Assembly: GCA_947039455.1 (NCBI GenBank)
Contig: CAMQZB010000001.1
Coordinates: 15,877 to 79,876, forward strand
Reading direction: 5' to 3'
From: an uncultured Clostridia bacterium
Lineage (GTDB): Bacteria; Bacillota; Clostridia; Christensenellales; CAMQZB01
DNA: 64,000 nt
Both the position numbers and the translations under genes were made by a program. Positions 8,130 through 64,000 of this stretch are shown here, piece after piece (the first letter of the stretch is position 1; each line of letters opens with the position of its first letter). The notes beneath the pieces are model-generated. The model made no database searches. It saw only the letters and a list, made by a program, of their open reading frames with translations, and had not been told where the DNA came from.

Positions 8130-8149
8130 ATTTCTTCCTCCTAAATTAA

Positions 8150-46854: not shown

Positions 46855-46879
46855 GTGTAACACTATAAGGAGGTGGCGA

Positions 46880-49065: not shown

Positions 49066-49094
49066 TTGACAAACGTAAAAGAAAGGGGTATTAT
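49066..49094 (+). promoter_or_regulatory. Sigma-A promoter of the maoC-bcd-etfBA operon
   Basis: TTGACA, a 17-nt spacer, then TATTAT. Confidence 0.75.
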
Positions 49095-49107: not shown

Positions 49108-49128
49108 ATTATGAATATAGTTCATAAT
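49108..49128. promoter_or_regulatory. Operator-like palindrome B (ATTATGAA-N5-TTCATAAT)
   Basis: Perfect 8-bp inverted arms, 14 nt downstream of the -10 box. Confidence 0.65.
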
Positions 49129-49146: not shown

Positions 49147-49551
49147 ATGAAGTACTCAGAAATTTCTATTGGAATGAAAGACAGTCTTTCAAAAACTTTT
49201 TCAGAAGCCGACATCGTTATGTTTGCTGGCGTATCATTGGATGTAAATCCATTGCATATGAATGAAGAGTTTGCAAAAACAACAGTATTTGGCAAAAGAA
49301 TTTGTCACGGAATGTTGTCTTGTGGATTAATATCTGCGTGCCTAGCAAACAAATTGCCAGGTGCTGGAACAATCTACTTGGGTCAAGAAGTAAAATTCAC
49401 TGCACCAGTATTTATTGGTGACACAGTAACAGCTGAGCTTGAAATAGTTGAGATGAGAGATGATAAACATATTATCAAACTTTCTACAAACTGTTTTAAT
49501 CAAGACGGAAAACAAGTTATAGCAGGAACAGCAACTGTAAAGTTGCCATAA
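49147..49551 (+). CDS. MaoC-like (R)-specific enoyl-CoA hydratase (PhaJ-type)
   Basis: 134-aa single hot-dog with DVNPLHMNEEFAKTTVFGKRICHGML (hydratase 2 motif). Confidence 0.8.
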   Translation: MKYSEISIGMKDSLSKTFSEADIVMFAGVSLDVNPLHMNEEFAKTTVFGKRICHGMLSCGLISACLANKLPGAGTIYLGQEVKFTAPVFIGDTVTAELEIVEMRDDKHIIKLSTNCFNQDGKQVIAGTATVKLP

Positions 49552-50723: not shown

Positions 50724-51509
50724 ATGAGAATAGCAGTATGTATTAAACAAGTTCCAAATACAACTGAGATCAAAATTGATCCAGTAACAAATACATTGAA
50801 GAGAGATGGTGTACCATCAATCATGAACCCAGACGACAAAGCAGCACTAGAGAGCGCATTAGTATTAAAAGACAAATACAATGCAGAAGTAGTTGTAGTA
50901 ACAATGGGTCCTCCACAAGCTGAGTTGATATTGCGTGAAGCAATGTCAATGGGTGCTGACGAAGCGTTCCTAGTAACAGATAGAGCATTTGCTGGATCTG
51001 ACACATGGGCAACTTCAACTATCCTAGCAGCAGCTTTGAAAAAAGTAGGCTATGATATTATTATCGGAGGCCGTCAAGCAATCGATGGAGATACAGCGCA
51101 AGTTGGACCTCAAATCGCTGAGCATCTTGATATCCCACAAGTAACTTATGTTGTAGAAATCGACATTGACGAGAAAAATAATGTATGTAGAGTTAAAAAA
51201 GAATTCGAAGACAGATATCAAATCGTTGAAGTAAAAGGCAAAGCATTGTTCACAGTATTGTCAGGAATGAATGAGCCAAGATATATGTTAGTAGGGGGAA
51301 TCGTAGACCAAGAAGAAAAAGCAATCACAGTGATAACAGTTAATGATATCGAAGTTGATCGTGGAAACATTGGACTATTGGGTTCACCAACAAAAGTTAA
51401 ATCATCATTCAGCAAAACAGTTGACTCAAACAAAGAGTTAATTGAGCTTAGCCCACAAGAAGCGGCTAAAGTAATCGCTGACAAACTTGCTGAAAAGCAT
51501 ATCATATAG
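50724..51509 (+). CDS. etfB: Electron transfer flavoprotein beta subunit
   Basis: MRIAVCIKQVPNT is a canonical start. 261 aa. Confidence 0.9.
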   Translation: MRIAVCIKQVPNTTEIKIDPVTNTLKRDGVPSIMNPDDKAALESALVLKDKYNAEVVVVTMGPPQAELILREAMSMGADEAFLVTDRAFAGSDTWATSTILAAALKKVGYDIIIGGRQAIDGDTAQVGPQIAEHLDIPQVTYVVEIDIDEKNNVCRVKKEFEDRYQIVEVKGKALFTVLSGMNEPRYMLVGGIVDQEEKAITVITVNDIEVDRGNIGLLGSPTKVKSSFSKTVDSNKELIELSPQEAAKVIADKLAEKHII

Positions 51510-51520: not shown

Positions 51521-52501
51521 ATGAGTAAAGATATTTTCGTTTATATAGAGCAAAGAGATAGAGTAATTCAAAATGTAAGTTTTGAGTTAATTGGCGAGGC
51601 TCGTCGTCTTGTAGCCGTTTCAGGCGGTAATGTATGTGGTGTGTTAGTTGGAAACAACATAGCAAGCCTAGCAAAAGAAGTAGTAGCAAACGGAGCTGAT
51701 AAAGTTTTCGTAGTTGATAACAAAGAGTTAGAATACTATACTACTGAATGTTACGCACAAGCAGTGACAGCGGTTGTTAGAAAACATTCACCAAACGCAA
51801 TGTTGTTTGGCGCATCAACAATCGGACGTGACTTAGCACCAAGAATTTCAGCAAGAGTTCATACAGGACTTACAGCTGATTGTACTGATTTGAAAATTGA
51901 TGAAGAAGGCAACTTGTTTATGACAAGACCTGCATTTGGCGGAAGTTTATTCGCAACAATTGCATGCCCAGATCACAGACCACAAATGTCAACAGTACGT
52001 CCTGGCGTTATGAAAAAAGTAGAGTATGATACAAACCGTGCAGGTGAAATAATCACTGAAGACGTTGCAATCGATGCTACAAAATTCGCAGTGAAAATAG
52101 TTGAAGAAGTTAAAGAAACTAAAGCAGCTGTAAAAATCGAAGACTCTAAAATCTTAGTATCAATGGGTCGTGGATTAGAGAATAACCTAGCACAAGTGAA
52201 AAACTTCGCAACAGTTATTGGTGGAACAGTTTCATGTTCAAGAGCCGTAGTAGATGCTGGAGTATGGAAATCTGACAGACAAGTTGGTCAAACAGGAAAA
52301 ACAGTTCGCCCTGATGTGTATTTCGCAATGGGAATTTCTGGAGCGGTACAACATATCGCAGGAATGGACGGATCTGACTTGATAATTGCAATCAACAAAG
52401 ACAAAACTGCAGCGATATTCAATACTGCACACCTTGGAATTGTAGGCGATGCAACAGCGATTATGCCAGAGCTAGAGAAAGAAATCTTAGCAAGAAAGTA
52501 A
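51521..52501 (+). CDS. etfA: Electron transfer flavoprotein alpha subunit
   Basis: C-terminal FAD motif AIGISGAVQHIAGM. 326 aa. Confidence 0.9.
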   Translation: MSKDIFVYIEQRDRVIQNVSFELIGEARRLVAVSGGNVCGVLVGNNIASLAKEVVANGADKVFVVDNKELEYYTTECYAQAVTAVVRKHSPNAMLFGASTIGRDLAPRISARVHTGLTADCTDLKIDEEGNLFMTRPAFGGSLFATIACPDHRPQMSTVRPGVMKKVEYDTNRAGEIITEDVAIDATKFAVKIVEEVKETKAAVKIEDSKILVSMGRGLENNLAQVKNFATVIGGTVSCSRAVVDAGVWKSDRQVGQTGKTVRPDVYFAMGISGAVQHIAGMDGSDLIIAINKDKTAAIFNTAHLGIVGDATAIMPELEKEILARK

Positions 52502-52717: not shown

Positions 52718-52746
52718 TTGACAAACTCAATTTTGTGTGTTAAAAT
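52718..52746 (+). promoter_or_regulatory. Extended -10 sigma-A promoter upstream of the thiolase operon
   Basis: TTGACA, a 17-nt spacer ending in TGT, then TAAAAT. Confidence 0.65.
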
Positions 52747-52827
52747 TTTATCGAAACAGATTACAGTTGTAAAGAACAATGAAATAGTCATTGCACTTAC
52801 ATAAATCTTCTTTTTTTTCCACAAAAA

Positions 52828-52894
52828 TGTGAACATAATTCATTACATAATATGGCAGATTTTTTTTGCACATAATTATGAACATAATTCAACA
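52828..52894. promoter_or_regulatory. Two further operator-like sites C and D related to TTATGAA-N5-TTCATAA
   Basis: Site C: atgtgaa-cataa-ttcatta (52827-52845). Site D: ttatgaa-cataa-ttcaaca (52876-52894). Confidence 0.5.
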
Positions 52895-52918: not shown

Positions 52919-54124
52919 ATGAGTAAAGTATTTTTAGTTAGTGGTAAAAGAACTGCAATTGGTTCAATGCTAGGTGGTTTAAAATCAGTTTCGCCAGCAG
53001 ACATGGGCGCGGAAGTAGTAAAAGCGTTAATATCTGACAGCAAAGTAAACCCAGCTAATATAGATGAAGTTATCATGGGAAATATACTATGTGCAGGACT
53101 AGCACAAGGTGTAGCACGTCAAGTATCAATCAAAGCAGGAATTCCACAAGAAGTACCAGCGTATTCATTGAATATGATATGCGGAAGCGGAATGAAAGCA
53201 GTGTTGAACGCATACGGAAACATCAAAGCAGGTCTACATCATATAGTAGTTGCAGGTGGAACTGAATCAATGTCATCAGCTCCAATGTTGATACCATCAA
53301 AAGTTAGAACAGGAACAAAATTCGGAAATTTCCAAGTGGTAGATCACATGGTAAATGACGCTCTAACTGACGCATTCACAGGAGTGCATATGGGAGTAAC
53401 AGCTGAGAACATCGCTGAAAAATATTCTATTACAAGAGAAGCACAAGACAATTTCGCAGCTTATTCACAAGCGAAAGCAATCAAAGCAGTTGATGCAGGA
53501 TTGTTTAAAGAAGAAATCGTTCCAATCAATGTTAAAGAAGGCAGAAACGAGTTTGTATTTGATACAGACGAGTATCCAAACAGAAAATCAACTGCTGAAA
53601 AACTTGGAACACTTCGTCCAGCTTTCAAAAAAGATGGATCAGTAACAGCTGGAAACGCATCAGGAATTAACGACGGTGCAAGTGCAGTGTTGTTAGCAAG
53701 TGAAGAAGCAGTAGCAAAATATAACTTAAACCCAATTTGTGAAATCGTAGGAGTTGGACAAGGGGGAGTAGACCCACAAGTAATGGGACTAGGACCAGTA
53801 CCAGCAGTTAAAATGGCATTGAAAAATGCGGGATTAACTCTTCAAGATATGGAGATACTTGAACTTAACGAGGCATTTGCCGCACAAAGTATTGGCGTAG
53901 TAACAGAATTAGCTGAACACTACGGAATGAGCATGGAAGATATATTCGCAAGAACAAATCCACGTGGAGGAGCGATTGCCCTAGGACATCCAGTAGGAGC
54001 TTCAGGAAACAGAATATTAGTAACACTTGTTCATGAAATGAAACAAAACAAAAACAAACTTGGTTTAGCATCATTGTGTATCGGTGGTGGAATGGGAACA
54101 GCAGTTGTAGTAAAATTCAACTAA
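52919..54124 (+). CDS. Acetyl-CoA C-acetyltransferase (thiolase II)
   Basis: Catalytic NMICGSGMKA (Cys), GNASGINDGA and CIGGGMG. Start moved to MSKVFLVSGKRTAIG after AGGAG. Confidence 0.9.
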   Translation: MSKVFLVSGKRTAIGSMLGGLKSVSPADMGAEVVKALISDSKVNPANIDEVIMGNILCAGLAQGVARQVSIKAGIPQEVPAYSLNMICGSGMKAVLNAYGNIKAGLHHIVVAGGTESMSSAPMLIPSKVRTGTKFGNFQVVDHMVNDALTDAFTGVHMGVTAENIAEKYSITREAQDNFAAYSQAKAIKAVDAGLFKEEIVPINVKEGRNEFVFDTDEYPNRKSTAEKLGTLRPAFKKDGSVTAGNASGINDGASAVLLASEEAVAKYNLNPICEIVGVGQGGVDPQVMGLGPVPAVKMALKNAGLTLQDMEILELNEAFAAQSIGVVTELAEHYGMSMEDIFARTNPRGGAIALGHPVGASGNRILVTLVHEMKQNKNKLGLASLCIGGGMGTAVVVKFN

Positions 54125-54208: not shown

Positions 54209-54928
54209 ATGAGATTAAAAAACAAAGTAGCTATAGTTACAGGTGGATCAAGAGGATTAGGACAAGCAATGGCGGAGTTATTCGCAGCTGAAGGCGCAAA
54301 AGTTATCGCAGTAGATATGGGCGATATGGTTTATGAATGTGCAAACGTTGAGTACTATAAACTTAACGTAACAGACAGAGACGCTTGTAAATCATTCTAT
54401 GATTGGGCAATTGCAAAATACGGACAAATCGACGTTCTAGTAAATAATGCTGGAGTAACTCGTGATTCAATGACAAGAAAAATGACAGACGAAATGTTTG
54501 ATTTCGTACTTGATGTAAACTTGAAAGGCGTATTTAACCTAACTAGATATATCGGACCACAAATGGAAGAAATCGGTGGCGGATCTATCATTAACATCTC
54601 ATCAGTAGTAGGCGTATTCGGAAATATCGGACAAGCAAACTATGCAGCTACAAAATCTGGCGTAATCGGAATGACAAAATCATGGGCAAAAGAATTTGCT
54701 AGAAAAGGTGTTCCAGTAAGAGTAAATGCACTTGCACCAGGATACACAATGACAGACATGATGAAAACAGTACCAGAAGATTTGTTGAAACAATTCGCTG
54801 GACAAACTATGTTAAAAAGACTTGGAGAGCCAGAAGATATTGCTAAAGCAACATTGTTCTTAGCATCTGATGATTCATCATATGTTACAGGACACGTACT
54901 TGAAGTAACAGGCGGAATGAGACTTTAG
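54209..54928 (+). CDS. SDR-family 3-oxoacyl reductase (FabG/PhaB-like)
   Basis: TGGSRGLG, NNAG and S...YAATK motifs. 239 aa. Confidence 0.8.
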   Translation: MRLKNKVAIVTGGSRGLGQAMAELFAAEGAKVIAVDMGDMVYECANVEYYKLNVTDRDACKSFYDWAIAKYGQIDVLVNNAGVTRDSMTRKMTDEMFDFVLDVNLKGVFNLTRYIGPQMEEIGGGSIINISSVVGVFGNIGQANYAATKSGVIGMTKSWAKEFARKGVPVRVNALAPGYTMTDMMKTVPEDLLKQFAGQTMLKRLGEPEDIAKATLFLASDDSSYVTGHVLEVTGGMRL

Positions 54929-54961
54929 AATAACACAGTAATTGATAATATGGAGGACAAA

Positions 54962-55975
54962 ATGGTGAATGTAGGAATAGTTGGAGTTGGAACATACTTC
55001 CCAAAATCATACAAAACAGCAAGCGACATTGCGGAAGCAACAAACGGAGTTTGGAGTGCAGATGCAGTTGAGAACAAGCTAGGAATAAAGAAAGTATTTA
55101 TTCCAGGCCCTGAAGACGGCACACAAGAAATGGGTGCAAAAGCGGGCTTGAAATGTTTAGAAAACACAGGAGTTGACCCAAAGGAAATCGACGTAGTTCT
55201 TTGCATAGGCGAAGAGTGGAAAGAGTATCCTTTGACAACATCAGCACTATACATTCAAGATCGTATCGGAGCAGTAAACGCTTGGGGCATTGATGTAGCA
55301 AATAGATGTTGCACATGCGTATCAGCTATGAAAATTGCAAAAGATATGTTGATTGCCGATGATGAAATCAATACTATCATGGTAGTTGGCGGATACAGAA
55401 ACGGTGACTTCGTTGATTACACAGACAAGAATATGTCTATGATGTTCAACTTGTCAGCAGGTGGTGGAGCTATAATCTTGAAAAAGAACTATGGCAAAAA
55501 CTTACTTCTAGGATCAAAAGTAATTGCAGACGGAAGTTTAGCAAGAACAGCAGGAGTAGAGATTGGCGGAACAGTTAATCCAATAACTGCTGATAACCTA
55601 GAAGCGTCAAGAAAATCCCTAAGATTACTAGACCCAGTTAAAATGAAAACTCGTTTAAACGAAGTTTCAATGCCAAACTGGTTTAAATGTATAGATGAGA
55701 GTTTGAAACAAGCTAAGATGACAAGAGCAGATATCGACTATCTTGATGTATTGCACATGAAGAAAAGCGGACATATCGGAATGCTTAATGATCTTGGAAT
55801 GACTGAAGACCAATCAATCTACCTAGAAGATTATGGACACGTTGGACAAATTGACCAAATCCTATCACTAGAACTTGGATTAAAAGAAGGAAAAGTGAAA
55901 GACGGCTCAGTAGTATGTATGATCGCAGCCGGAATAGGATATGTTTGGTCAGCAAATATAATTAAGTGGGGGTAA
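54962..55975 (+). CDS. Thiolase-fold condensing enzyme (KAS III / archaeal-type HMG-CoA synthase-like); alternative start at 54950
   Basis: VGIVGVGTYFPK N-terminus, GEEW, and DVANRCCTC (candidate nucleophile Cys). GGAGG 5 nt upstream of 54962. Confidence 0.65.
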   Translation: MVNVGIVGVGTYFPKSYKTASDIAEATNGVWSADAVENKLGIKKVFIPGPEDGTQEMGAKAGLKCLENTGVDPKEIDVVLCIGEEWKEYPLTTSALYIQDRIGAVNAWGIDVANRCCTCVSAMKIAKDMLIADDEINTIMVVGGYRNGDFVDYTDKNMSMMFNLSAGGGAIILKKNYGKNLLLGSKVIADGSLARTAGVEIGGTVNPITADNLEASRKSLRLLDPVKMKTRLNEVSMPNWFKCIDESLKQAKMTRADIDYLDVLHMKKSGHIGMLNDLGMTEDQSIYLEDYGHVGQIDQILSLELGLKEGKVKDGSVVCMIAAGIGYVWSANIIKWG

Positions 55976-55982
55976 AAAAACT

Positions 55983-56873
55983 ATGGATTTAGGATTATTT
56001 TTACAAACAATAGTTAACAGTTTCCAAGGAATAGCAATGTACTCACTTGCAACCTTTGGGATTGTACTAATATTCCGTACTTCAGCAACAACAAACTTTG
56101 CTCAAGGAGCTATAGCAACATTCGGTTGTTATGTAGCAACACAATTCGGTGTAATAAACGGAATGAATCTTTGGGTATCGTTAGTACTTGGAATGTTGAC
56201 CGCATTTGCATTAGGCGTAATTATCGATAACTTTATCATAAGACGAGGAAAAGATGTAAACGCAGCAGGAAAGCAAATGATAACTATGGGATTGCTACTA
56301 GTATTTACAAATATAATACCAGTTATATTCTCAATGATAACTATCACAACACCAGCAACTAAGAACTTTGCAACAGGAAGTTTTAACTTTACGTTATTAG
56401 GGCAAGATATTTATTGGCCATATCAATCAATGATATGCGTACTTCTAGCGGTAGTATTGCTTGGAGCAGTATTTGCAGCATTGAAGTTCACAAAATGGGG
56501 ACTTGGAGTGCGTGCAACAGCGTCTAACGAAACTGTAGCAAAAATGATGGGCGTAAATACAAAGGTAATCACAGCATTAAGTTGGGCGATTGCCGGAGCA
56601 CTAGCAACAGTAGCAGCGTGTTCAATGCAAACAGTACTAAACCCAGCAATGATGGGAAAAGCTCAAACATACGGATTCTTAGCCTGCGTGCTTGGAGGAT
56701 TGTCAAGCTTTATAGCACCAATTATTGGAGCAATCATAATTCCAGTAGTAATAAACTTCGCAGCAATATACACATCAGCATGGGCTGAACTAATCATGTT
56801 CTGCATCGTATTGCTTCTAATTCTTATTAGACCAAATGGACTATTCGGCAAGAAGTTCATAAAGAAGGTGTAA
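55983..56873 (+). CDS. Branched-chain amino acid-type ABC permease (LivH family)
   Basis: 296-aa polytopic protein with a LivH-like layout. First of the permease pair. Confidence 0.75.
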   Translation: MDLGLFLQTIVNSFQGIAMYSLATFGIVLIFRTSATTNFAQGAIATFGCYVATQFGVINGMNLWVSLVLGMLTAFALGVIIDNFIIRRGKDVNAAGKQMITMGLLLVFTNIIPVIFSMITITTPATKNFATGSFNFTLLGQDIYWPYQSMICVLLAVVLLGAVFAALKFTKWGLGVRATASNETVAKMMGVNTKVITALSWAIAGALATVAACSMQTVLNPAMMGKAQTYGFLACVLGGLSSFIAPIIGAIIIPVVINFAAIYTSAWAELIMFCIVLLLILIRPNGLFGKKFIKKV

Positions 56874-56874
56874 A

Positions 56875-57945
56875 ATGATTAAAAATAAAATGAAAAATCC
56901 TTTAGTAGCGAAAATTGCTAAAGTATCAAAACATCCATATGCAACATTCATATACTTTGGATTAGCAACAGTAGTATTGTTATTACTTCAAATGTTTACT
57001 CCATTGATAAAATACTCATTTGTAGGCGCACTTGCACAAACAATGTGTTATGCAATCGTAGCCGTGGGGTTCTCGTATCTATTAGGATATGCAGGATTAT
57101 CATCACTAGGAACAGCGGGTTTCGTAGGACTAGGTTCATACATTACAGTTTATATGCTACGCACATATTCTGGAATGAACTATTTCGTAGTGATGTTAAT
57201 TGTGTTAGTAGTATCTATTATAATCGGATTAATAGTAGGATTTATCTCACTAAGAATTGAAGGAATTTTCCTTGCAATCGTAACTCTAGGATTATCTGAG
57301 GTATTCTATCAAGTATTTATGAACGCAACAGAGTTTACAGGTGGATCAAACGGAACATCATTCACAGGTGAAGTAAATATCTTCCCAGGAATAAGTTTAG
57401 GCCGTGAGGGTGTCTTTATAATGATAGCTGTATTCTTAACGGCAATGATCATAATGACATTCAACCTAGTAAACAGCCCAACAGGCAGAGCAATGCTAGC
57501 AATGAAAAACTCAACATCAGCAGCGCAAGCAATGGGAATTTCACTTCTAAAATACAGACTACTTGCATTTATCTTAGCAACAATTTACGCAGCAATCGCT
57601 GGTTCATTGCTAATGACATTTAACAAGTATACCGATCCAAAGAGTTGGACGATAATGTTCTCTCTAAACATCTTAGCAGCGTGTTTGTTGGGTGGCACAA
57701 GATCAATTTGGGGTATATTTATCGGTACGTTCTTCGTATTCGGTTTAACGCCTATGTTCCTAAACGACATAGTATTCTTGAGAAACAATCCATGGTTGTT
57801 GTCAACAATTATAGGTGTAGTACTAATTTTAGTTCTTATGTTCTATAAAGGTGGATTAATGCAATTATTACACGATATTAAGAAATTTGTAAATAACAAA
57901 ATAAGTAAGAGAAGGGAGTTTAAGTATGGAAAAGATGAAATCTAA
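56875..57945 (+). CDS. Branched-chain amino acid-type ABC permease (LivM family)
   Basis: 356-aa polytopic protein. GYAGLSSLGTAGFVGLGSY motif. Confidence 0.75.
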   Translation: MIKNKMKNPLVAKIAKVSKHPYATFIYFGLATVVLLLLQMFTPLIKYSFVGALAQTMCYAIVAVGFSYLLGYAGLSSLGTAGFVGLGSYITVYMLRTYSGMNYFVVMLIVLVVSIIIGLIVGFISLRIEGIFLAIVTLGLSEVFYQVFMNATEFTGGSNGTSFTGEVNIFPGISLGREGVFIMIAVFLTAMIIMTFNLVNSPTGRAMLAMKNSTSAAQAMGISLLKYRLLAFILATIYAAIAGSLLMTFNKYTDPKSWTIMFSLNILAACLLGGTRSIWGIFIGTFFVFGLTPMFLNDIVFLRNNPWLLSTIIGVVLILVLMFYKGGLMQLLHDIKKFVNNKISKRREFKYGKDEI

Positions 57946-59395
57946 TAGCAAAATAAATACTCTCGCATCAAAAATTGAGCAATTAAAACATAAACTTGAT
58001 TTGAACAAAGCACTTGTAGAGTTAGAGCAAAGCAAACTTGACGACGTACGTAAAAGTAAAGTTGATAGTTTTAAATTTAAATTATCAAAAAATCTTTTAA
58101 AACTTGAAAGAGAGTCAATTCCTGCTGAAGAATTGTTTAATGTTGAAAATCAAAAAAACTTTGTTAAATTTGATAAAAAGTTAGACCTTGAATACAGAGC
58201 AAAAAGACAAACTTTAAGAAGAGATGAGAACCTTGTAGATAAACAAAACAATGTAACAGGCGAACTTTCTAGCAAAGCTCAAGCTGAGCTAGTAGCTTTC
58301 AAAGGAGAACTTGACGCAAAGAAAATTGCACATGTTGAAGCATTAAGAGCAAAGTTCAAACAATTACAAGAACCAAAAACAACACAAGAACTAGCGCAAG
58401 CAGTTTCAGCTTATGAAAAAGCTCAAAGTGAGGCAGATGACGCAGCAAAAGCATTTGACCTAGAACTTATAGCTAAACATAACGAGAAAATAGAAGGGTA
58501 CAAAGCAAAAGTAGACGTAAAAATTACAGCAATGCAAAAAGGGTACGATGAATCTAAATCCGAGTTAAACGCTTTACAAAAAGAAGATCAAAAAAGTCAA
58601 TATCAACTTGCTGATGATACAATTTTAAAACTTGAACATCTAACAATGCAATTCGGTGGACTAAAAGCGGTAAATGATTTATCATTTGAAGTTAAGAAAG
58701 GCGAGATATTCGGTTTAATAGGACCAAACGGAGCGGGAAAAACAACAGTGTTTAACTGCATCACTCAATTCTATAAACCAACTTCAGGCGACGTTTGGTA
58801 TAAAGATGCCAAAGATCAAGTACATTATTTAAATGATTATGTAGTGCATAACGTTATTCGTTATGGAATCGTTAGAACATTCCAAAACGTAGAAGTTATT
58901 GCTGAATTAAGTATTTTAGAAAACCTTTTGATCGCAGCTCATACTCAGTATAAAACAAGTATTTTTGCACAAATGATAAATTCTCCACATTTAAAACGTG
59001 AAGAAATATTATTAAGAAGAAAAGCACAAAAGATTTTAAAATATCTAAAACTTGACGACATACAAGACGTACCACCAGTTGGAATGCCTTACGGTGTGTT
59101 AAAGAAAATAGAGCTTGCCCGTACACTAATGGCAGGAGCAAACTTGATTATCCTTGACGAGCCGGCGGCAGGTCTAAACGATCAAGAAACTTTAGAGCTA
59201 GCAGAGATAATCAAAGATATTAAAAACGAATATAAAGTAACAATCTTCCTAGTAGAACATGATATGGGACTTGTTATGGATATTTGCGATCACATCTGTG
59301 CAATATCTTTTGGTAGCAAACTTGCATACGGAACACCTTCAGAGATTCAATCTAACAAAAAAGTACAAGAAGCATATCTTGGAAGTGAGGACTAA
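57926..59395 (+). CDS. LivG-type ABC ATPase with a ~235-aa N-terminal coiled-coil-like extension
   Basis: Walker [10 protein letters not shown] is at about residue 268 of 489. The signature-motif position reads [11 protein letters not shown]. Walker [12 protein letters not shown]. The N-terminal region is K/E/Q/A-rich. Confidence 0.8.
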
Positions 59396-59396
59396 T

Positions 59397-60170
59397 ATGG
59401 GAATAGCATTAAAATTAGATAAATTATCAGTTTCTTACGGAGCAATAGCAGCCTTGAAAGAGGTGACTATTGAGGTAGAAGAAGGTTCAATAGTAGCACT
59501 GCTTGGTGCAAACGGTGCAGGTAAATCTACACTGTTACGTACAGTTTCTGGAATAGTTAAAGCAAGTGGTGGAGACATCACATTGTTTGATAAAAGCATA
59601 TTAGGAATTGAGCCATACAAAATTGCATACGCAGGAGTAATTCAGTCACCAGAAGGTCGTATGATTTTAAACGGACTTACTGTTGAAGATAATCTTCTAG
59701 TAGGAACTTATGGTCTAAAAAAACAAGAAACAACTTATTTTGAAGAAGGGCAAAAAATAACGAGAGTTATGAGTGTCAAAGAACAAAAAAAGAGAAATTT
59801 CGAAAGAGTATATAAATACTTCCCAATCTTGAAAGACAGAAAATCTCAACAAGCAAGTACATTGTCAGGAGGCGAGCAACAAATGCTAGCAATCGGACGT
59901 GCACTAATGGCAAGTCCAAAAGTGTTACTACTTGATGAGCCATCATTGGGATTAGCCCCTCTTATTGTTCGTGATATTTTTTCTATCATCGACCAAATTA
60001 GACAAGAGGGAAACACGATTCTAATAGTAGAACAAAATGCGTACCAAACATTGAAAATTGCAAACTACGGATATGTTCTAGAACTTGGAAAAGTAACAAT
60101 AGAAGGACCAGCTAAAGAGCTTCTTTCAAATGAGAAGTTAATTGAAGCGTACCTAGGTGGAAAACACTAA
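59397..60170 (+). CDS. LivF-type ABC ATPase
   Basis: GANGAGKST, LSGGEQQMLAIGRAL, LLLDEPSLGLAP. Start moved to the ATG after GAGG, 2 nt past the livG stop. Confidence 0.85.
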   Translation: MGIALKLDKLSVSYGAIAALKEVTIEVEEGSIVALLGANGAGKSTLLRTVSGIVKASGGDITLFDKSILGIEPYKIAYAGVIQSPEGRMILNGLTVEDNLLVGTYGLKKQETTYFEEGQKITRVMSVKEQKKRNFERVYKYFPILKDRKSQQASTLSGGEQQMLAIGRALMASPKVLLLDEPSLGLAPLIVRDIFSIIDQIRQEGNTILIVEQNAYQTLKIANYGYVLELGKVTIEGPAKELLSNEKLIEAYLGGKH

Positions 60171-60229
60171 AAAATAGCCATTAAGTCCAAAGAAATTGGA
60201 TTTATAATATAAAATGGAGGAAATGAATT

Positions 60230-61531
60230 ATGAAAAAATTAATAGCAATCGTATTAATTATCGCAATGCTAGTATCAACAGTAGCATGTGGCGGTGGAGC
60301 TGGTGAAATCACTATCGGCGCATCAATCACAAGCACAGGCCCTTATGCAGCAGTAGGTGTACCTTACGGTAACTTCTACAAAGCGTATGTTGATTACATC
60401 AACGCTCATCCAGAGAGTTATCCAGAAATGGGTGGGAAAACTCTAAATGCAATCGTTTATGACGATGCAGGTGATGGTGCTCAAGGAAAACAATACATCG
60501 AAAAACTTATCAATGATGATAAAGTTGATGCATTAGTAGGTATTCTTGGAACATGGAACGTAGTAGCTGCTCAAGAAGTTCTTGAGACTGCTGGTATTCC
60601 ATCAGTTTACTTCGGTACTGGATCATCAGCACAAATGTATGAGCCAGCAGAAGGCGACCAAAGATATATGATGGGTGTTCAACCTTTGTACAAAACTGAA
60701 GGAAGACTTATGTACCTTCGTGCAATTACAGAGTTCGAAGACGTAAAAACTATTGGTGTTATCCACTCTGACGCAGATGACGGAATTTCATTGAAAGACG
60801 GAATCATGGCGCAAATGGAAGAAGATAAACGTGAAAACAAACCTACAGTAATTTTCCAACAAATTTCATCATCAGCAACTAAAACAGATATCACTTCTCA
60901 AGTAGCTGCAATTGAAGGTTGTGACGTAATTATCGCTGCTGGTAACCAAGCACCATTCCAAGCAATCTACAAAGCAACTCAAGAAAATGTTTCAACAAAA
61001 GGTGTTCCAATTCTTACAACTTATGTAAACATTGCACCAACTAACATGCCTGAAGAAGCAATCGTAGAAGGTAACAGCGAAATTTTCGGTGCTTCATGGA
61101 TCGTATTTGGCGAAGAAGCAGGTTCATCAGATGAAGCAGACAGACGTCTTGCTGATTATGCTGAGTACTGTGCAGTAGTTGATTGGGATACAAAACATAT
61201 TCCAGCTGACCAAAAAGAAGCTTACAAAGCAAACGCATATGCAATGAGTTCATTCATCGCTATCCGTACATTCCTAGTAGGAATGGAAAGACTTACTGAA
61301 GGTGCATTAGAATTCACTCCAGAAAACTACTTGAAAGTTATGGAAGCTGAACGTGTTCCAATCGCAATCTCAGGATCAGCAAAATACGAAAACGGACAAC
61401 GTATCGGACTAGATTCATTGTCATTCGTAAAATTCGTACCAACTGCTGGAGAAGCAGCTGCTAAAGGTACTTTCGTAGAAATGGATGCTATGCAATCAAT
61501 CGACGATCTTATCTCTAAATTAGTAGGTTAA
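60230..61531 (+). CDS. ABC substrate-binding lipoprotein (type 1 PBP, Liv/amide-urea family)
   Basis: Lipobox VSTVACGG. 433 aa. Last gene of the transporter block. Confidence 0.7.
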   Translation: MKKLIAIVLIIAMLVSTVACGGGAGEITIGASITSTGPYAAVGVPYGNFYKAYVDYINAHPESYPEMGGKTLNAIVYDDAGDGAQGKQYIEKLINDDKVDALVGILGTWNVVAAQEVLETAGIPSVYFGTGSSAQMYEPAEGDQRYMMGVQPLYKTEGRLMYLRAITEFEDVKTIGVIHSDADDGISLKDGIMAQMEEDKRENKPTVIFQQISSSATKTDITSQVAAIEGCDVIIAAGNQAPFQAIYKATQENVSTKGVPILTTYVNIAPTNMPEEAIVEGNSEIFGASWIVFGEEAGSSDEADRRLADYAEYCAVVDWDTKHIPADQKEAYKANAYAMSSFIAIRTFLVGMERLTEGALEFTPENYLKVMEAERVPIAISGSAKYENGQRIGLDSLSFVKFVPTAGEAAAKGTFVEMDAMQSIDDLISKLVG

Positions 61532-61583: not shown

Positions 61584-61613
61584 TTGATTGGGGAGGGCGA
61601 CCTCCCCTTGATA
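61584..61613 (+). terminator. GC-rich hairpin without a U-tract (possible terminator or stabiliser)
   Basis: ggggagg-gcga-cctcccc, flanked by tattgt...acaata. Confidence 0.4.
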
Positions 61614-61802: not shown

Positions 61803-63113
61803 ATGGCAAAAATAATAACAGCTGAAAAAGCTCTAGAATTAGTAAAAGACGGTGATTATATAGTGGTGGGAATGGCTTCAAGCGAACCGCTAGAATTTTG
61901 TTCAAATCTGCACAAAATTGCACCAAGAATTGATCAAATCACACTAACAAACTGCCTAGCAATGAAAGCTTATGATTTTATGACTGATGAATCAATTAGA
62001 AGTAAATTCAATGTAGAAAGCTGGTTTTTTGATGGAACATCAAGAAAGAATTTCCAACAAGGAAACTTTTCATTCATACCAAACCACTTGCATTTCGCAT
62101 CATCAAAAAGATTAGTTCACAAAAGCCCTGACATCACAATAGTAAGTGCATCAATGCCTGATAAACACGGATATGTATCAGTAGCGCTAGCAAATGTGTA
62201 TGAGCAAGAGCATTTGAAACGTGCCAAAATCTCAATCCTAGAGATTAATCCAAATATTCCAAGAACATTCGGAGACGTGTCAGTGCATATTGACGACATC
62301 GACTATCTAGTTGAATGTAGTTACCAACCACCAATTATTCCTGAAGGCGTATCAAACGATAAAGACAAAAAAATCGGAGCATACATTGCTGATTACATTA
62401 AAGACGGCGACTGTCTACAAGTAGGCATAGGCGGAATTCCTGACGCAGTAGTAGCATCTTTATTCGACAAAAAAGACCTTGGTGTACATACCGAAATGAT
62501 GACAACAGGTCTTATGAAACTAGCAAAAGCTGGCGTAGTAAACGGTTCAAAAAAGCAAACACACGTAGGCAAAATAGTAGCATGTTTCGCTGCAGGAACA
62601 CAAGAATTATATGAATATATGGACGATAACCCATCAATTTTAATAATGGACGGCGCATATGTAAACGATTCATGGGTAATTTCTCAAAATGACAATCAAG
62701 TATCAATAAACACAACTTTGGAAATCGATTTAGTTGGACAATGTTGTTCAGAATCAATCGGTTCACGTCAATTCTCAGGAACAGGCGGACAAACTGATAC
62801 AGCGGTTGGCGCGAAAATGTCTAAAAACGGACGCTCATTTATTGCATTATATTCAACAGCAATGGTGAAAAATAAAGCAACAGGTGAAAGAGAAGAAAAG
62901 AGTAAAATCGTAGCACAATTAACAGCTGGTGCAATAGTTTCATTGTCAAGAAACGACGTGGATTATGTAGTAACTGAGTATGGTTGCGTATGCTTAACAG
63001 GAACATCATGTGCTGAGCGTGTGGAATTACTAATCTCAATCGCACACCCAGATTTCCGTGATCAACTATGGAACGACGCAATCAAATGCGGAGTAGCGGT
63101 TAAAAGGGTATAA
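61803..63113 (+). CDS. Acetyl-CoA hydrolase/transferase family CoA-transferase (butyryl-CoA:acetate or 4-hydroxybutyrate type)
   Basis: 436 aa. N-terminus ITAEKALELVKDGDYIVVGMASSEP. GIGGIPDAV and EMMT(T)G motifs. Confidence 0.75.
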   Translation: MAKIITAEKALELVKDGDYIVVGMASSEPLEFCSNLHKIAPRIDQITLTNCLAMKAYDFMTDESIRSKFNVESWFFDGTSRKNFQQGNFSFIPNHLHFASSKRLVHKSPDITIVSASMPDKHGYVSVALANVYEQEHLKRAKISILEINPNIPRTFGDVSVHIDDIDYLVECSYQPPIIPEGVSNDKDKKIGAYIADYIKDGDCLQVGIGGIPDAVVASLFDKKDLGVHTEMMTTGLMKLAKAGVVNGSKKQTHVGKIVACFAAGTQELYEYMDDNPSILIMDGAYVNDSWVISQNDNQVSINTTLEIDLVGQCCSESIGSRQFSGTGGQTDTAVGAKMSKNGRSFIALYSTAMVKNKATGEREEKSKIVAQLTAGAIVSLSRNDVDYVVTEYGCVCLTGTSCAERVELLISIAHPDFRDQLWNDAIKCGVAVKRV

Positions 63114-63117
63114 AATC

Positions 63118-63939
63118 ATGTCAGAATTTAATTTTAAAAACAATATAATACATTATGAAGTTTATGGAGAAGGGAAACCTCTAATTATTTTAAACGGAAT
63201 AATGATGACAACAAAAAGTTGGGAAATCTTTAAAACAGCATTTTCAAAAAACAATAAATTAATACTTGTTGACTTCCTTGATCAAGGAGCTAGCTGTCGA
63301 ATGACTGAAAGCTACACGCAAAAAGACCAAGTTGAAGTTCTTCGAGAATTATATAATGAATTAGGTATTGACAAAGCAAGCCTTTGTGGTATATCATATG
63401 GTGGAGAAGTAGCAATACAATTCGCAATAAAATACGGTGACTTAGTTGATAAACTAGTATTGTCAAACACAGCAGGAAGAACAAGCCCATGGCTACGTGA
63501 TATCGGAAACGCATGGAACGCAGCTGGAGAGAATGAAAACTGCGGACAACAGTACTATTTAACAGCAATTCCAGTTATATATTCACCGAAATTCTATGAA
63601 GATCGCCTTGATTGGATGAAAAATCGCGAGAAAATTCTAGTACCGTATTTCAATGACAAAACGGTAATGGCAACAATCAAACGTCTAGTAATCAGTGCGG
63701 AAAACTACAACGAAGTGAATAATTTAGAGAAAATAACAGCAAAAACATTGGTAATAAGTTGTGATGAAGACTATTTAACACCAATGAAAGAGCAAAACAT
63801 TTTGAAATCAAAAATTCCAAACAGCCAACTAGTAATAATACCAGAAGTGGGTCATGCGTCAATGTACGAAAAACCTGAATTATGGGCTACACTAGTTTTA
63901 GGATTTGTGAATTTGGATTGTAATATTAAACTTATATAA
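63118..63939 (+). CDS. Alpha/beta-fold hydrolase
   Basis: Nucleophile elbow GISYGG, C-terminal GHASMYEKP. 273 aa. 4-nt gap after the CoA-transferase gene. Confidence 0.7.
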   Translation: MSEFNFKNNIIHYEVYGEGKPLIILNGIMMTTKSWEIFKTAFSKNNKLILVDFLDQGASCRMTESYTQKDQVEVLRELYNELGIDKASLCGISYGGEVAIQFAIKYGDLVDKLVLSNTAGRTSPWLRDIGNAWNAAGENENCGQQYYLTAIPVIYSPKFYEDRLDWMKNREKILVPYFNDKTVMATIKRLVISAENYNEVNNLEKITAKTLVISCDEDYLTPMKEQNILKSKIPNSQLVIIPEVGHASMYEKPELWATLVLGFVNLDCNIKLI

Positions 63940-63960: not shown

Positions 63961-64000
63961 ATGATGAAGTTCGAGAAAAAAAGAGTAAATATAGGCAAAG
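63961..64000 (+). CDS. 5' end of an unidentified ORF running off the window
   Basis: AAGGAGG RBS 7 nt upstream of the ATG. Only 13 codons are visible. Confidence 0.3.
   Translation, partial: MMKFEKKRVNIGK

Follow-up and report, generated by a model that had tools for sequence, protein, structure and literature searches.

A conserved gene cluster joining an uncharacterised KAS III-fold enzyme to a Liv-type importer, perhaps for uptake and fermentation of (R)-3-hydroxybutyrate

The window (i.e., the whole stretch of 64,000 nucleotides analysed, from an uncultured Clostridia bacterium) carries an acyl-CoA operon in which a KAS III-fold enzyme and a Liv-type ABC importer are embedded (Table 1). 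For gene calls and for hydrolase 2 (L097:19000-19884) we used a locus, L097, that matches the window without a difference over 19,039 nt; the rest of hydrolase 2, plus a third hydrolase, lies past the window end. The KAS-like ORF spans 54950-55975 (+), the public gene call (P0001, 337 aa, 100% identical) beginning at 54962, and the thiolase starts at the ATG at 52919, not at the GTG at 52829 (401 aa in the gene call of L097). All features described by the initial annotation were recovered at their positions, including the motifs of the KAS-like protein (VGIVGVGTYFPK, PEDGTQEMG, GEEW, GHVG, and DVANRCCTC, the candidate nucleophile context), the tight spacing of the liv genes and the spacer, given as 270 nt, ahead of the CoA-transferase and hydrolase. 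The stem-loop within this spacer is possibly a partial terminator or a processing site; the terminator scan made no call there and no Rfam match was obtained.

Table 1 Features of the cluster, with positions in the window
Feature	Position	Strand	Basis or remark
TetR-family repressor, FadR-like, divergently transcribed	48309..48929	-	PF00440 in L097
Operator-like palindrome TTATGAATATTTTTCATAA	48990..49008	.	tetR-maoC intergenic region
Promoter-like TTGACA-17-TATTAT	49066..49094	+	upstream of maoC; 11/12 consensus, consensus match only
Second operator-like palindrome TTATGAATATAGTTCATAA	49109..49127	.	just 3' of -10 hexamer
MaoC-type (R)-specific enoyl-CoA hydratase	49147..49551	+	PF01575
Short-chain acyl-CoA dehydrogenase (ACAD), Bcd/AcrC-like	49572..50711	+	NCBIfam
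Electron-transfer flavoprotein beta subunit, EtfB	50724..51509	+	PF01012
Electron-transfer flavoprotein alpha subunit, EtfA	51521..52501	+	PF01012 + PF00766
Second promoter-like TTGACA-17-TAAAAT, upstream TG	52718..52746	+	ahead of thiolase gene; 11/12 consensus
Third operator-like site TTATGAACATAATTCAACA	52876..52894	.	two mismatches to pattern
Acetoacetyl-CoA-type thiolase, PhaA/AtoB-like	52919..54124	+	TIGR01930, 454 bits, above cut-off
NAD(H)-type 3-ketoacyl/(R)-3-hydroxyacyl reductase, FabG/PhaB-like SDR	54209..54928	+	match to 4NBT
KAS III-fold enzyme, NF005308 (PRK06840), Cys116-His265-His293	54962..55975	+	NCBIfam, AF2, alignment
ABC permease, LivH/UrtB-type	55983..56873	+	PF02653; gap 7 nt after KAS-like gene
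ABC permease, LivM/UrtC-type	56875..57945	+	PF02653; gap 1 nt after LivH
ABC ATPase, LivG-type	57926..59395	+	PF00005 + PF12399, residues 249-489; 20-nt overlap with LivM
ABC ATPase, LivF-type	59397..60170	+	PF00005; gap 1 nt after LivG
Substrate-binding lipoprotein (Peripla_BP_6)	60230..61531	+	PF13458; lipobox ...STVAC; gap 59 nt after LivF
GC-rich stem-loop GGGGAGG-GCGA-CCTCCCC	61590..61607	+	within 271-nt spacer before CoA-transferase
Family-I CoA-transferase, 4-hydroxybutyrate / butyryl-CoA:acetate type	61803..63113	+	PF13336 + PF02550
Cytoplasmic alpha/beta-hydrolase 1, carboxylesterase type	63118..63939	+	GxSxG = GISYG; match to 4q3l
Alpha/beta-hydrolase 2, PHB-depolymerase-like, first 40 nt	63961..64000	+	continuation in L097

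The best solved relative of the TetR protein is FadR of Sulfolobus acidocaldarius (6el2/6en8, 97.5 bits), an acyl-CoA-sensing regulator that represses an esterase and beta-oxidation cluster (PMC6449355). The pattern TTATGAA-N5-TTCATAA was matched five times in the window, at three sites, with 0.08 matches expected by chance, and a weaker copy with three mismatches was seen by eye at 52827-52845. Operator-like sites are present at both promoter-like sites, and the FadR-like protein would repress the cluster through them.

The KAS-like enzyme has a KAS III (FabH) fold of the thiolase-fold condensing type, yet it is not FabH. FabH models score 103-115 bits (cut-offs 249-292), in agreement with the earlier view that this is no housekeeping FabH, and the sole NCBIfam model passed is NF005308 (PRK06840; 466.7 bits vs. 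a cut-off of 315), an uncharacterised family for which our literature search found no paper and no experimental data on any member. HMMER alignment with solved FabH structures places Cys116 on FabH Cys112, the histidine of VLHMKK on His244 and that of YGHVG on Asn274, just where GHVG had been noticed before. Almost all of ~160 relatives carry His where FabH has Asn, and the resulting Cys116-His265-His293 triad is well kept in a 162-sequence alignment: all three residues occur in 81/81 close relatives and, among 79 distant ones, in 72, 69, and 75, respectively, with Ser replacing Cys in some distant members. In the same alignment Glu85, Lys87, Asp/Glu88, Arg146, Lys267, and Asp298 are conserved throughout NF005308, and several conserved charged residues are particular to this family alone. 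The AF2 model (pLDDT 95.7) resembles FabH and BioZ (TM ~0.87), and the best 50 structural neighbours listed are mostly condensing enzymes (e.g., FabH, BioZ, OleA, PqsD, and PqsBC). An HMG-CoA synthase or PksG-like identity, proposed from the N-terminus, was rejected, as Pfam assigns PF08545 and PF08541 but none of the HMG-CoA-synthase domains, HMGCS models match the N-terminal half only (37-48 bits vs. cut-offs of 244-353), and HMGCS is absent from the best 50 structural neighbours listed.

Among the partner enzymes, the SDR matches Acholeplasma laidlawii 'FabG' over its full length (4NBT, 349 bits, ~72% identity), a structure listed among NAD-bound dehydrogenases (PMC5264612); it carries Asp37 in VIAVD and scores 223 bits against the (3R)-hydroxyacyl-CoA dehydrogenase 2et6. 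Together with the MaoC protein (138.7 bits against the hydratase domain NF006045), it points to (R)-3-hydroxyacyl-CoA chemistry. Acryloyl-CoA reductase AcrC is the best NCBIfam match of the ACAD (476 bits, below the cut-off of 640), and EtfB contains IDGDTAQVGP, which we take to be a motif of bifurcating Etf proteins. The CoA-transferase matches the 4-hydroxybutyrate CoA-transferase 3eh7 (310 bits) and stays below the cut-off of TIGR03948 (322.8 vs. 674.8 bits). Hydrolase 1, in whose sequence no signal peptide was seen, is related to the metagenomic hydrolase MGS-M2 (4q3l, 255 bits), and hydrolase 2 to a 'poly(3-hydroxybutyrate) depolymerase' (PDB 8ynv, 216.5 bits, full length, ~42% identity); against NF050089 (intracellular scl-PHA depolymerase) hydrolase 2 is at, not clearly above, the cut-off of 300 (298.5 bits in L097, range 298-316). 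Hydrolase 2, the C4 monocarboxylate CoA-transferase, and the Bcd/AcrC-like ACAD may be taken as signs of a 3-hydroxybutyrate substrate.

None of the importer proteins reaches the cut-off of its equivalog model (LivJ, LivH, LivM, LivG, or LivF), with, e.g., 247.8 bits vs. 441 for the LivF-type ATPase and 27.8 vs. 477 for LivJ on the binding protein. The LivG-type ATPase has a K-, E-, L-, and A-rich N-terminal extension of ~230 aa; in most cluster relatives such extensions have 200-280 aa, with 20-27% identity there. 'LivHMGF' is the name of a transporter family, not of a substrate, and the branched-chain amino or keto acid first suggested as cargo has no backing, given that the LivJ model failed; moreover, neither aminotransferase nor keto-acid dehydrogenase genes are recurrent in ~170 loci. 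The binding protein (AF2 model, pLDDT 88) is only ~32% conserved between clusters, and its close homologs are mostly from Treponema and other spirochaetes. Its nearest structures, by sequence and by fold, are the aromatic-acid binders (p-coumarate and 4-hydroxybenzoate) of R. palustris, with E-values not separable from LivJ, and no separation of carboxylate from amino-acid binders is obtained among its structural neighbours. One could thus imagine an importer for hydroxycinnamates or phenylpropanoates of plant material, in which case the hydrolases would be cinnamoyl esterases, the CoA-transferase and ACAD/Etf would act as in caffeate respiration, and the side chain would be beta-oxidised by MaoC, SDR, and the KAS-like enzyme. 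The gut and rumen bacteria among the carriers would suit such a pathway, as would the set of CoA-transferase, ACAD, and EtfBA, which resembles CarA-E of Acetobacterium woodii. Nevertheless, we regard an aromatic acid as quite improbable, since the thiolase belongs with the acetoacetyl-CoA enzymes, the nearest relatives are short-chain enzymes for the ACAD and C4 enzymes for the CoA-transferase, and hydrolase 2 is PHB-depolymerase-like.

The cluster recurs in 80 species-representative genomes with a KAS-like gene 70-82% identical to ours, in Clostridia, Mollicutes-like Bacilli, and Treponema. The recurring set consists of TetR (63 genomes), thiolase (50), SDR (74, median identity 71%), the KAS-like enzyme (better conserved than any other protein here, median identity 74%), LivH (76), LivM (69), LivG (66), LivF (67), the binding protein (59), CoA-transferase (58), and alpha/beta-hydrolases (57), sometimes with MaoC (23) and ACAD-EtfBA; the PHB-depolymerase-like hydrolase is found in only 35 loci, many of these incomplete. 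These counts are lower bounds, as many contigs end early. At 40% identity the cluster is still present with a different gene order. Thus, the Liv-type importer is a true, conserved member of the acyl-CoA operon, as initially proposed, and that proposal is favoured both by this conservation among relatives and by the failure of the enzyme to classify as a clean FabH with an intact Cys-His-Asn triad. The public names ('3-oxoacyl-ACP synthase', 'branched-chain amino acid transport system substrate-binding protein') would instead have a housekeeping FabH, a FabG-type SDR, and a branched-chain amino acid importer as neighbours without shared function. This is already contradicted by the failed FabH and Liv equivalog models, the replacement of Asn by His, the linkage kept across phyla and through gene rearrangements, and the lack of fab/acp genes nearby, and we give it next to no credence.

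In relatives 30-45% identical to the KAS-like enzyme, the importer, SDR, MaoC, and hydrolases are kept and an acyl-CoA ligase replaces the CoA-transferase: the KAS-like gene adjoins a ligase gene in 47/80 loci, Liv-type importers occur in ~24, and TetR also recurs. Such an exchange of CoA-transferase for ligase between lineages would be expected if an imported free acid were turned into its CoA ester. The trio that recurs throughout the family comprises the KAS-like enzyme together with enzymes for CoA activation and for ester hydrolysis; in minimal archaeal-type loci nothing but ligase, importer, and KAS-like gene is present. From these minimal loci one might argue that the importer takes up malonate or a different dicarboxylate and that the KAS-like enzyme uses its CoA ester directly, by decarboxylating malonyl-CoA or by a condensation with acetyl-CoA, i.e., as a MatA substitute in a MatB/MatA-type route. 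The triad would suit decarboxylation, the basic residues are conserved, and the distant-locus ligase scores 357 bits against the malonyl-CoA synthase (MatB) model. However, this is below the cut-off of 558 and generic fatty-acid ligase models score higher, the CoA-transferase in the window is of the monocarboxylate C4 type, and the hydrolases are left without a role, so that we consider this route very unlikely.

Our preferred but tentative reading is that the ~16 kb cluster (48.3-64.8 kb) is a horizontally spread, inducible pathway by which a short-chain acid is taken up, activated with CoA, and fermented, and we infer its substrate, the direction in which it runs, and what the KAS-like enzyme does as follows. 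The Liv/HAAT-family importer (lipoprotein binding protein, two permeases, and two ATPases) would bring in a short-chain carboxylic acid, with (R)-3-hydroxybutyrate, related 3-hydroxyalkanoates, and their oligo-esters, all breakdown products of polyhydroxyalkanoates, as the favoured cargo. Ester bonds would be cleaved by the cytoplasmic alpha/beta-hydrolases, one of them PHB-depolymerase-like, and the acyl-CoA made by the 4-hydroxybutyrate-type CoA-transferase, or by an ANL acyl-CoA ligase in distant relatives. The NAD-dependent SDR would interconvert (R)-3-hydroxyacyl-CoA and 3-ketoacyl-CoA, and the Cys-His-His enzyme may perform a CoA-level carbon-carbon step on the 3-keto intermediate; we favour a thiolase-like or OleA-like Claisen or retro-Claisen reaction without decarboxylation, via a conserved acidic residue. 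Acetoacetyl-CoA would be split by the PhaA-like thiolase, while MaoC and Bcd/EtfBA could form a reductive branch to butyryl-CoA, from which the CoA-transferase frees butyrate. The sequence of uptake, CoA activation, and condensation or cleavage foreseen by the initial annotation fits the evidence, with the hydroxy acid as the favoured one of its candidate substrates. Biosynthetic partner genes (ACP, malonyl-transfer, aminotransferase, and PhaC) do not recur in the loci compared, in favour of this reading.

As all catabolic steps are covered without it, the 3-hydroxybutyrate model leaves the central KAS-like enzyme unexplained. Decarboxylating KAS I/II enzymes use a Cys-His-His triad, so malonyl-dependent condensation would fit, and the conserved Lys87, Arg146, and Lys267 could hold a malonyl carboxylate; the predominance of condensing enzymes among the 50 nearest folds listed points the same way. 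The enzyme would then extend the CoA ester of the imported short acid with malonyl-CoA or malonyl-ACP, or form acetoacetyl-CoA in an NphT7-like manner, and SDR, MaoC, and ACAD/Etf would complete a CoA-level elongation cycle of condensation, reduction, dehydration, and reduction, with the hydrolases as terminating thioesterases; the products would be butyrate, medium-chain acids, or, in wall-less Bacilli, precursors of lipids. We judge chain extension in either form to be less likely: ACP, FabD, and acetyl-CoA carboxylase genes are not recurrent in ~170 loci, NAD(H) and not NADPH is the cofactor type of the reductase, a high-affinity importer, FadR-like repressor, and esterases are typical catabolic features, the ATP cost of malonyl-CoA would seem wasteful in a fermentative route, and a conventional thiolase is already there in 50/80 loci.

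A task not covered by the thiolase would be gained if the enzyme were an acyltransferase like CerJ, ChlB3, or DpsC, moving acyl or 3-hydroxyacyl groups between an oxygen ester and CoA with no carbon-carbon step, e.g., a thiolysis of imported oligo-esters that yields acyl-CoA and saves the ester-bond energy. Loss of the FabH Asn is a hallmark of KAS III-like acyltransferases (e.g., ChlB3), DpsC has Ser instead of Cys, as do the distant members mentioned above, and the family-wide trio would suit such a role. However, the third triad residue of CerJ and DpsC is Asp, not His, in sequence the enzyme is marginally similar to CerJ, DpsC, and ChlB3 (E = 4e-5 to 6e-4), less so than to FabH, and transfer from oxygen ester to thioester would be thermodynamically uphill, which makes acyl transfer improbable.

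We return to (R)-3-hydroxybutyrate or its oligo-esters, perhaps bioplastic-derived, as the favoured substrate. The near-unchanged presence of the cluster in many anaerobic bacteria suggests that it is probably an undescribed route by which a small organic acid is taken up and fermented.

Judged from its sequence and predicted model, the 337-aa product of the KAS III-like gene is a KAS III-fold protein with a putative Cys-His-His triad, distinct from both FabH and HMG-CoA synthase. Its only Pfam matches are the FabH-type domains PF08545 and PF08541 (both above their cut-offs), and the only NCBIfam model that it passes is NF005308 (PRK06840), with 466.7 bits against a cut-off of 315 and a match spanning profile positions 3-336 of 339; a 40% identical relative passes the same model at 434 bits. 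NF005308 bears the name '3-oxoacyl-ACP synthase', we found no characterised member of it, and no study describing this family or its gene cluster appeared in the literature searched. The family is small, with only 107 clusters (50% identity) at E < 1e-30 among 1.8 billion representative proteins. In an AlphaFold model built from 39 relatives (pLDDT 95.7), the nearest solved structures are FabH (E. coli 1HN9, S. aureus 1ZOW) and BioZ, which have the same fold (TM 0.84-0.88) and the same Pfam domains at ca. 20% identity, followed by OleA, PqsD and PqsBC.

Aligned to the FabH structures, Cys116 corresponds to Cys112, His265 to His244 and His293 to Asn274, i.e., the nucleophilic cysteine, the first histidine and the Gly-rich oxyanion loop are common to both enzymes and the triad asparagine is lost. 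The initial annotation had read GHVG where FabH has GNTS, and this substitution is real and a property of the whole family: in an alignment of 162 sequences out of ca. 170 loci, the position is histidine in all 81 close and in 75 of 79 distant relatives, and Cys116, His265, His293 and Asp298 are nearly invariant. The FabH motif HQAN is replaced by H-x-K-[RK], and Lys87, Arg146, Lys267, Asp298 and an inserted Asn163 are conserved in the family and absent from FabH, as is Glu85, though position 85 varies in distant members. Position 88, three residues before that of FabH Phe87, is acidic (Glu or Asp) in 160 of 160 sequences. In the literature searched, we found no account of a KAS III-fold protein with such a Cys-His-His active site. 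Scores stay below the cut-off on every FabH model, e.g., TIGR00747 (103.2 bits against 292.1) and NF006829 (115 against 249), and together with the change from Asn to His this leads us to reject a housekeeping FabH. Thus, the initial view of an ambiguous thiolase-fold enzyme rather than a clean FabH stands, and its suggestion of an HMG-CoA-synthase/PksG-like identity is contradicted by Pfam, NCBIfam and fold comparison alike. The archaeal HMG-CoA-synthase models match only the N-terminal half (NF003274, 48.5 bits against 244; TIGR00748, 37.1 against 353), the HMGCS Pfam domains PF01154 and PF08540 have no match in the protein, and HMG-CoA synthase is absent among the 50 best fold matches listed. 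Glu84 and Glu85 precede Cys116 by 32 and 31 residues, a spacing similar to that between Glu79 and Cys111 in the Glu-Cys-His triad of HMGCS, but position 84 is Ser in distant members.

Loss of the triad asparagine is typical of KAS III-like acyltransferases such as CerJ, ChlB3 and DpsC, and some members of the present family use Ser as nucleophile, as DpsC does. An ester-to-CoA acyl transfer would also give the KAS-like enzyme a job of its own. However, the third residue here is His and not the Asp of CerJ and DpsC, the similarity to CerJ, ChlB3 and DpsC is only E = 4e-5 to 6e-4, and those enzymes serve in actinomycete polyketide tailoring whereas the KAS-like gene lies in a catabolic-type operon; we place the enzyme outside their Cys/Ser-His-Asp class (third residue His, E = 4e-5 or weaker) and consider such a transfer improbable.

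The genes from maoC to the end of the window are tightly packed in series on the + strand (see table), and all gene spacings reported initially agree with the ORFs of the window. The public contig L097, which shares 19,039 nt of identical sequence with the window, continues with two further alpha/beta-hydrolase genes; the product of the second is of a PcaD or proline-iminopeptidase-like kind, seldom seen in other loci. The longest thiolase ORF would begin with a GTG at 52829, adding 30 residues in a stretch that overlaps an operator-like site; the ATG used in the table has a good ribosome-binding site (AGGAG) and agrees with a public gene call of 401 aa. An AT-rich spacer of 271 nt between the genes for the binding protein and the CoA-transferase holds a GC-rich hairpin that may be a partial terminator setting the ratio of transporter to enzyme transcripts. 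Neither this spacer nor that of 417 nt gave an Rfam match (riboswitch or leader RNA) at E <= 1.

Positions of cluster genes, candidate regulatory sites and flanking features in the window; the last two hydrolase genes are placed on public contig L097
Feature	Position	Strand	Remark
Pyrimidine biosynthesis operon	1532-10236	-	aspartate carbamoyltransferase, dihydroorotase, carbamoyl-phosphate synthase small and large chains, dihydroorotate dehydrogenase
Two serpin genes	16576-18054, 18203-19414		adjacent
2,910-aa ORF	33269-42001		YDG and GLUG motifs
PadR-family regulator gene and membrane protein gene	46832-48228		1-base overlap
TetR gene	48309-48929		opposite direction to + strand operon
TTATGAA-N5-TTCATAA, two copies	48990-49008, 49109-49127		between tetR and maoC
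MaoC hydratase	49147-49551	+	
Short-chain acyl-CoA dehydrogenase (ACAD)	49572-50711	+	
EtfB	50724-51509	+	
EtfA	51521-52501	+	
Palindrome, weaker copy	52827-52845		
Palindrome, less perfect copy	52876-52894		upstream of thiolase gene
Thiolase	52919-54124	+	
SDR	54209-54928	+	
KAS III-like gene	54962-55975	+	
LivH	55983-56873	+	
LivM	56875-57945	+	
LivG	57926-59395	+	
LivG N-terminal extension	57926-58615		ca. 230 aa
LivF	59397-60170	+	
Lipoprotein binding protein	60230-61531	+	
Hairpin GGGGAGG-GCGA-CCTCCCC	61590-61607		
CoA-transferase	61803-63113	+	
Alpha/beta-hydrolase 1	63118-63939	+	
Alpha/beta-hydrolase 2	L097:19000-19884		begins at window 63961
Alpha/beta-hydrolase 3	L097:20145-20963		

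Further upstream, the window offers an ordinary housekeeping context in its pyrimidine operon, two genes for serpins (serine protease inhibitors), which are unusual in bacteria, and a single very long ORF whose product is probably a giant surface or adhesin-type protein. Immediately before the TetR gene sits a PadR-family regulator gene overlapping the start of a gene for a 336-aa multi-pass membrane protein, which has no Pfam match. Near the cluster on contig L095, which carries a KAS-like homolog of 40% identity, a PadR gene likewise precedes one that no Pfam domain matches.

We examined gene contexts in three orthologs from gut and environmental metagenomes and in 80 species-representative genomes. 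The recurrent set comprises TetR, thiolase, SDR, the KAS-like gene, LivH, LivM, LivG, LivF, the binding protein, the CoA-transferase and one to three hydrolases; the MaoC-ACAD-EtfBA module accompanies it in about a quarter of the loci. Carriers include Christensenellales, Oscillospiraceae, Proteiniclasticum, Anaerocolumna, Acholeplasma, Izemoplasmatales, Peloplasma and Erysipelotrichaceae, and a Treponema contig holds the same set with LivM and LivG fused into one protein of 686 aa. Compared with the window proteins, the KAS-like enzyme (median identity 74%) and the SDR (71%) are the best conserved and the binding protein (32%) the least. Clustering of the neighbouring ORFs brought out no other recurrent partner, i.e., no ACP, malonyl transferase, aminotransferase or PhaC. 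In ca. 170 loci no fab or acp gene recurs near the KAS-like gene, which, unlike that of FabH, keeps company with an importer and CoA-activating enzymes, and none of these loci contains a PhaC, phasin or PhaR gene. Readings in terms of biotin (BioZ/BioH) or mevalonate synthesis were dropped, since no other genes of either pathway recur. The cluster on L095 is rearranged and retains the same partners; its thiolase is of the SCP-x rather than the PhaA type, and a second, more FabH-like KAS III paralog (L095:6264-7271, - strand; 192 bits to NF006829, below the cut-off) adjoins a CoA-transferase there.

A more distant branch was sampled through 80 metagenomic loci at 30-45% identity to the KAS-like enzyme, many of them GC-rich and one representative deriving from an Anaerolineae MAG. 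An ANL-type acyl-CoA ligase adjoins the KAS-like gene in 47 of these 80 loci and a Liv-type importer occurs in ca. 24; alpha/beta-hydrolases, MaoC, a FabG-like SDR and TetR or another regulator (in some loci one that we take to be of the bacterio-opsin-activator type, as in haloarchaea) recur, and thiolase and ACAD are almost absent. The unit that travels as a whole therefore has at its core the importer, a ligase or CoA-transferase for CoA activation, the KAS-like enzyme and ester hydrolases. Exchange of the ligase for a CoA-transferase is what one would expect if the imported compound were a free carboxylic acid needing its CoA ester. The initial proposal that the importer is embedded in the acyl-CoA operon is thus borne out by its recurrence across the 80 species loci and the distant branch. 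Judging by these contexts, linkage of the KAS-like gene with the importer and CoA-handling partners is ancient, ranging over Firmicutes, Spirochaetes, Chloroflexi and probably haloarchaea, and we found no description of this near-obligate association (KAS-like enzyme, Liv importer, CoA-activating enzyme and ester hydrolases) in the literature searched. PRK06839, PRK06840 and PRK06841, matched by the ligase, the KAS-like enzyme and an SDR family, are consecutive NCBI cluster numbers, which may mean that these genes lie side by side in some early reference genome.

The ligase-bearing loci combine the same four families as OleABCD (KAS III-like enzyme, ANL ligase-like protein, alpha/beta-hydrolase and SDR), and OleA is itself a thiolase-fold KAS III-like enzyme (TM about 0.80, ca. 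14% identity). An Ole-type beta-lactone or olefin pathway was therefore considered and then set aside, as replacement of the ligase by a CoA-transferase in the window lineage favours CoA activation over beta-lactone synthesis. OleA, which also takes a catalytic Glu from its partner subunit, keeps the Asn of its Cys-His-Asn triad, where the KAS-like enzyme has His, and the window cluster differs further from OleABCD in its importer, thiolase, Bcd/Etf proteins, short-chain-type partner enzymes and classical SDR of 239 aa.

With two BPD_transp_2 permeases, two ATPases (one carrying a BCA_ABC_TP_C tail) and a Peripla_BP_6 binding protein, the importer fits the Liv/HAAT ABC family (TC 3.A.1.4). All of its components nevertheless score below the cut-offs of the branched-chain amino-acid equivalogs (LivJ 27.8 against 477, LivH 41 against 379, LivM 96 against 366, LivG 269 against 362, LivF 248 against 441), and a plain annotation as FabH plus an amino-acid transporter, although it corresponds to the labels these genes bear in public, seems to us extremely unlikely. 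LivG begins with a K/E/L/A-rich extension lacking a Pfam domain that is probably a coiled coil; extensions of 200-280 aa, only 20-27% identical, occur in most clusters of this type and are absent in L095. By sequence and by fold alike, the binding protein is best matched by aromatic-acid binders of Rhodopseudomonas palustris, whose CouP and 4-hydroxybenzoate uptake systems likewise combine Peripla_BP_6 and LivHMGF-type parts for a carboxylate that is then CoA-activated. This would suit a hydroxycinnamate pathway. However, identity to these binders is only 14-19%, the present transporter differs in the N-terminal extension of its LivG, the scores do not separate the aromatic-acid binders from LivJ, and Foldseek with a good AF2 model does not separate aromatic-acid, fatty-acid and amino-acid binders; we regard hydroxycinnamates as decidedly improbable substrates.

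The partner enzymes point to short-chain, (R)-configured CoA chemistry. Along its entire length the SDR shares ca. 72% identity with PDB 4NBT, the 'FabG' of Acholeplasma laidlawii, which Javidpour et al. reportedly studied in 2014 as an engineering part for fatty-acid production; to our knowledge, its native role and genomic context are not treated in the literature searched. As Acholeplasma granularum carries the cluster, 4NBT probably comes from an orthologous one. The SDR also resembles (3R)-hydroxyacyl-CoA dehydrogenase and has Asp37 at the end of its second strand, the usual mark of NAD(H) preference. The EtfB sequence holds a DGDTAQVGP motif, which we take to be that of bifurcating Etf proteins. 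A published table places 4NBT among NAD-bound dehydrogenases and cites an NADH-dependent FabG study (PMC5264612). The hydratase is of the (R)-specific MaoC type, the thiolase of the acetoacetyl-CoA type, and the ACAD most resembles the Etf-linked short-chain enzymes of clostridia. The CoA-transferase, with both AcetylCoA_hydro domains (N- and C-terminal), is closest to 4-hydroxybutyrate and butyryl-CoA:acetate transferases (310 bits to 3eh7; equivalog TIGR03948, 322.8 bits against 674.8). Hydrolase 1 lacks a signal peptide, matches a metagenomic hydrolase with 255 bits and reaches only 73 bits on the intracellular scl-PHA depolymerase model NF050089. Hydrolase 2 aligns over its full length to the solved poly(3-hydroxybutyrate) depolymerase 8ynv (ca. 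42% identity, 216 bits) and scores 298.5 bits on NF050089 against a cut-off of 300, with orthologs at 315.6 and 299.4.

Thiolase, Bcd-like ACAD, EtfB/EtfA and a butyryl-CoA:acetate-type CoA-transferase are shared with the clostridial butyrate pathway (Thl-Hbd-Crt-Bcd/EtfAB-But), whose (S)-specific Hbd and Crt are replaced in the window by an NAD-type FabG/PhaB-like SDR and MaoC, i.e., an (R) route; the KAS-like enzyme, importer and esterases come in addition. PHB mobilisation (PhaZ/PhaA/PhaB/PhaJ) has counterparts in the PhaA-like thiolase, PhaB-like reductase and PhaJ-like hydratase, and a candidate counterpart of PhaZ in hydrolase 2, whose model score is at the cut-off. However, the reductase here is of the NAD type, and the presence of an importer and a CoA-transferase suggests an external substrate rather than a storage polymer.

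The best solved relative of the TetR repressor is FadR of Sulfolobus acidocaldarius (97.5 bits), of which an acyl-CoA complex has been solved, and B. subtilis FadR (3whb) is weakly matched. The archaeal protein is an acyl-CoA-responsive repressor of a gene cluster for esterases and beta-oxidation that handles medium and long chains, and in which an ABC importer and a KAS III-like enzyme are not described (PMC6449355). Common to both systems are a homologous repressor and semi-palindromic operators (putative in the window) over esterases and acyl-CoA-processing enzymes. The palindrome TTATGAA-N5-TTCATAA stands twice before maoC, and imperfect copies precede the thiolase gene; the pattern has five matches at three sites against 0.08 expected by chance, each site lies close to a strong promoter-like match, and the palindrome is probably the TetR operator. 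From its presence at both promoter regions one would expect joint regulation of the MaoC-Etf and thiolase-to-transporter units.

Taken together, the high-affinity importer, acyl-CoA-type repressor, cytoplasmic esterases and ACP-free CoA activation, along with (R)-specific intermediates, a reductase of the NAD type, a thiolase, ACAD and CoA-transferase of C4 types and the PHB-depolymerase-like hydrolase, argue for a catabolic or fermentative role and not for lipid biosynthesis. We tentatively propose that the operon is an inducible system for catabolism or fermentation of (R)-3-hydroxybutyrate or related 3-hydroxyalkanoates; as a whole the model falls somewhat short of even chances, with its general catabolic outline held more firmly and the substrate less so. 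The compounds, possibly oligo-esters with a free carboxylate, would be imported, their esters hydrolysed, the acids converted by CoA transfer and oxidised to 3-ketoacyl-CoA, which would be cleaved to acetyl-CoA, and a reductive branch would lead via crotonyl-CoA to butyrate. For the KAS-like enzyme we favour a CoA-level, non-decarboxylative Claisen or retro-Claisen step, given that a malonyl-supplying gene never accompanies it and that its conserved acidic residue lies on what we take to be the loop bearing the catalytic Glu117 of OleA. Malonyl-dependent elongation would find an argument in the Cys-His-His triad, which decarboxylating KAS I/II enzymes use as well, and appears possible but unlikely; a cluster devoted to malonate use appears very unlikely indeed.

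The main weakness of the 3-hydroxybutyrate model lies in the KAS-like protein, which is the best conserved of the cluster although such catabolism has no need of a further carbon-carbon enzyme. As a long shot, this protein could be a new kind of ester/thioester acyltransferase, by which imported (R)-3-hydroxybutyrate oligo-esters would be cleaved by CoA instead of water, or built in reverse. If true, the enzyme would match PhaC/PhaZ in function on a thiolase fold and allow strict fermenters to conserve the ester-bond energy. This would also explain why the invariant core is formed by the KAS-like enzyme rather than by the thiolase, and why, from Firmicutes to haloarchaeal-looking loci, this core travels together with the importer, CoA activation and ester hydrolases.

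All parts of the cluster come from known superfamilies, and in its logic the operon is similar to known acid-uptake and beta-oxidation clusters. The cluster is widespread: a single ortholog of 82% identity has index entries in more than 1,100 data blocks, the contigs listed for it coming from human-gut metagenomes, and the range covers Clostridia, Acholeplasma and Izemoplasma-type Bacilli, and Treponema. Because its genes are publicly labelled FabH, FabG and 'branched-chain amino-acid transporter', metabolic reconstructions misplace them in lipid synthesis and amino-acid uptake. The predicted Cys-His-His triad on a KAS III fold defines a variant of the thiolase superfamily. Should the favoured 3-hydroxybutyrate model hold, the cluster would represent an unrecognised route by which anaerobes feed 3-hydroxybutyrate-type compounds, which could be PHA debris or possibly host ketone bodies, into acetate and butyrate, including an (R)-specific butyrate branch that searches for the usual Hbd and Crt genes would miss.
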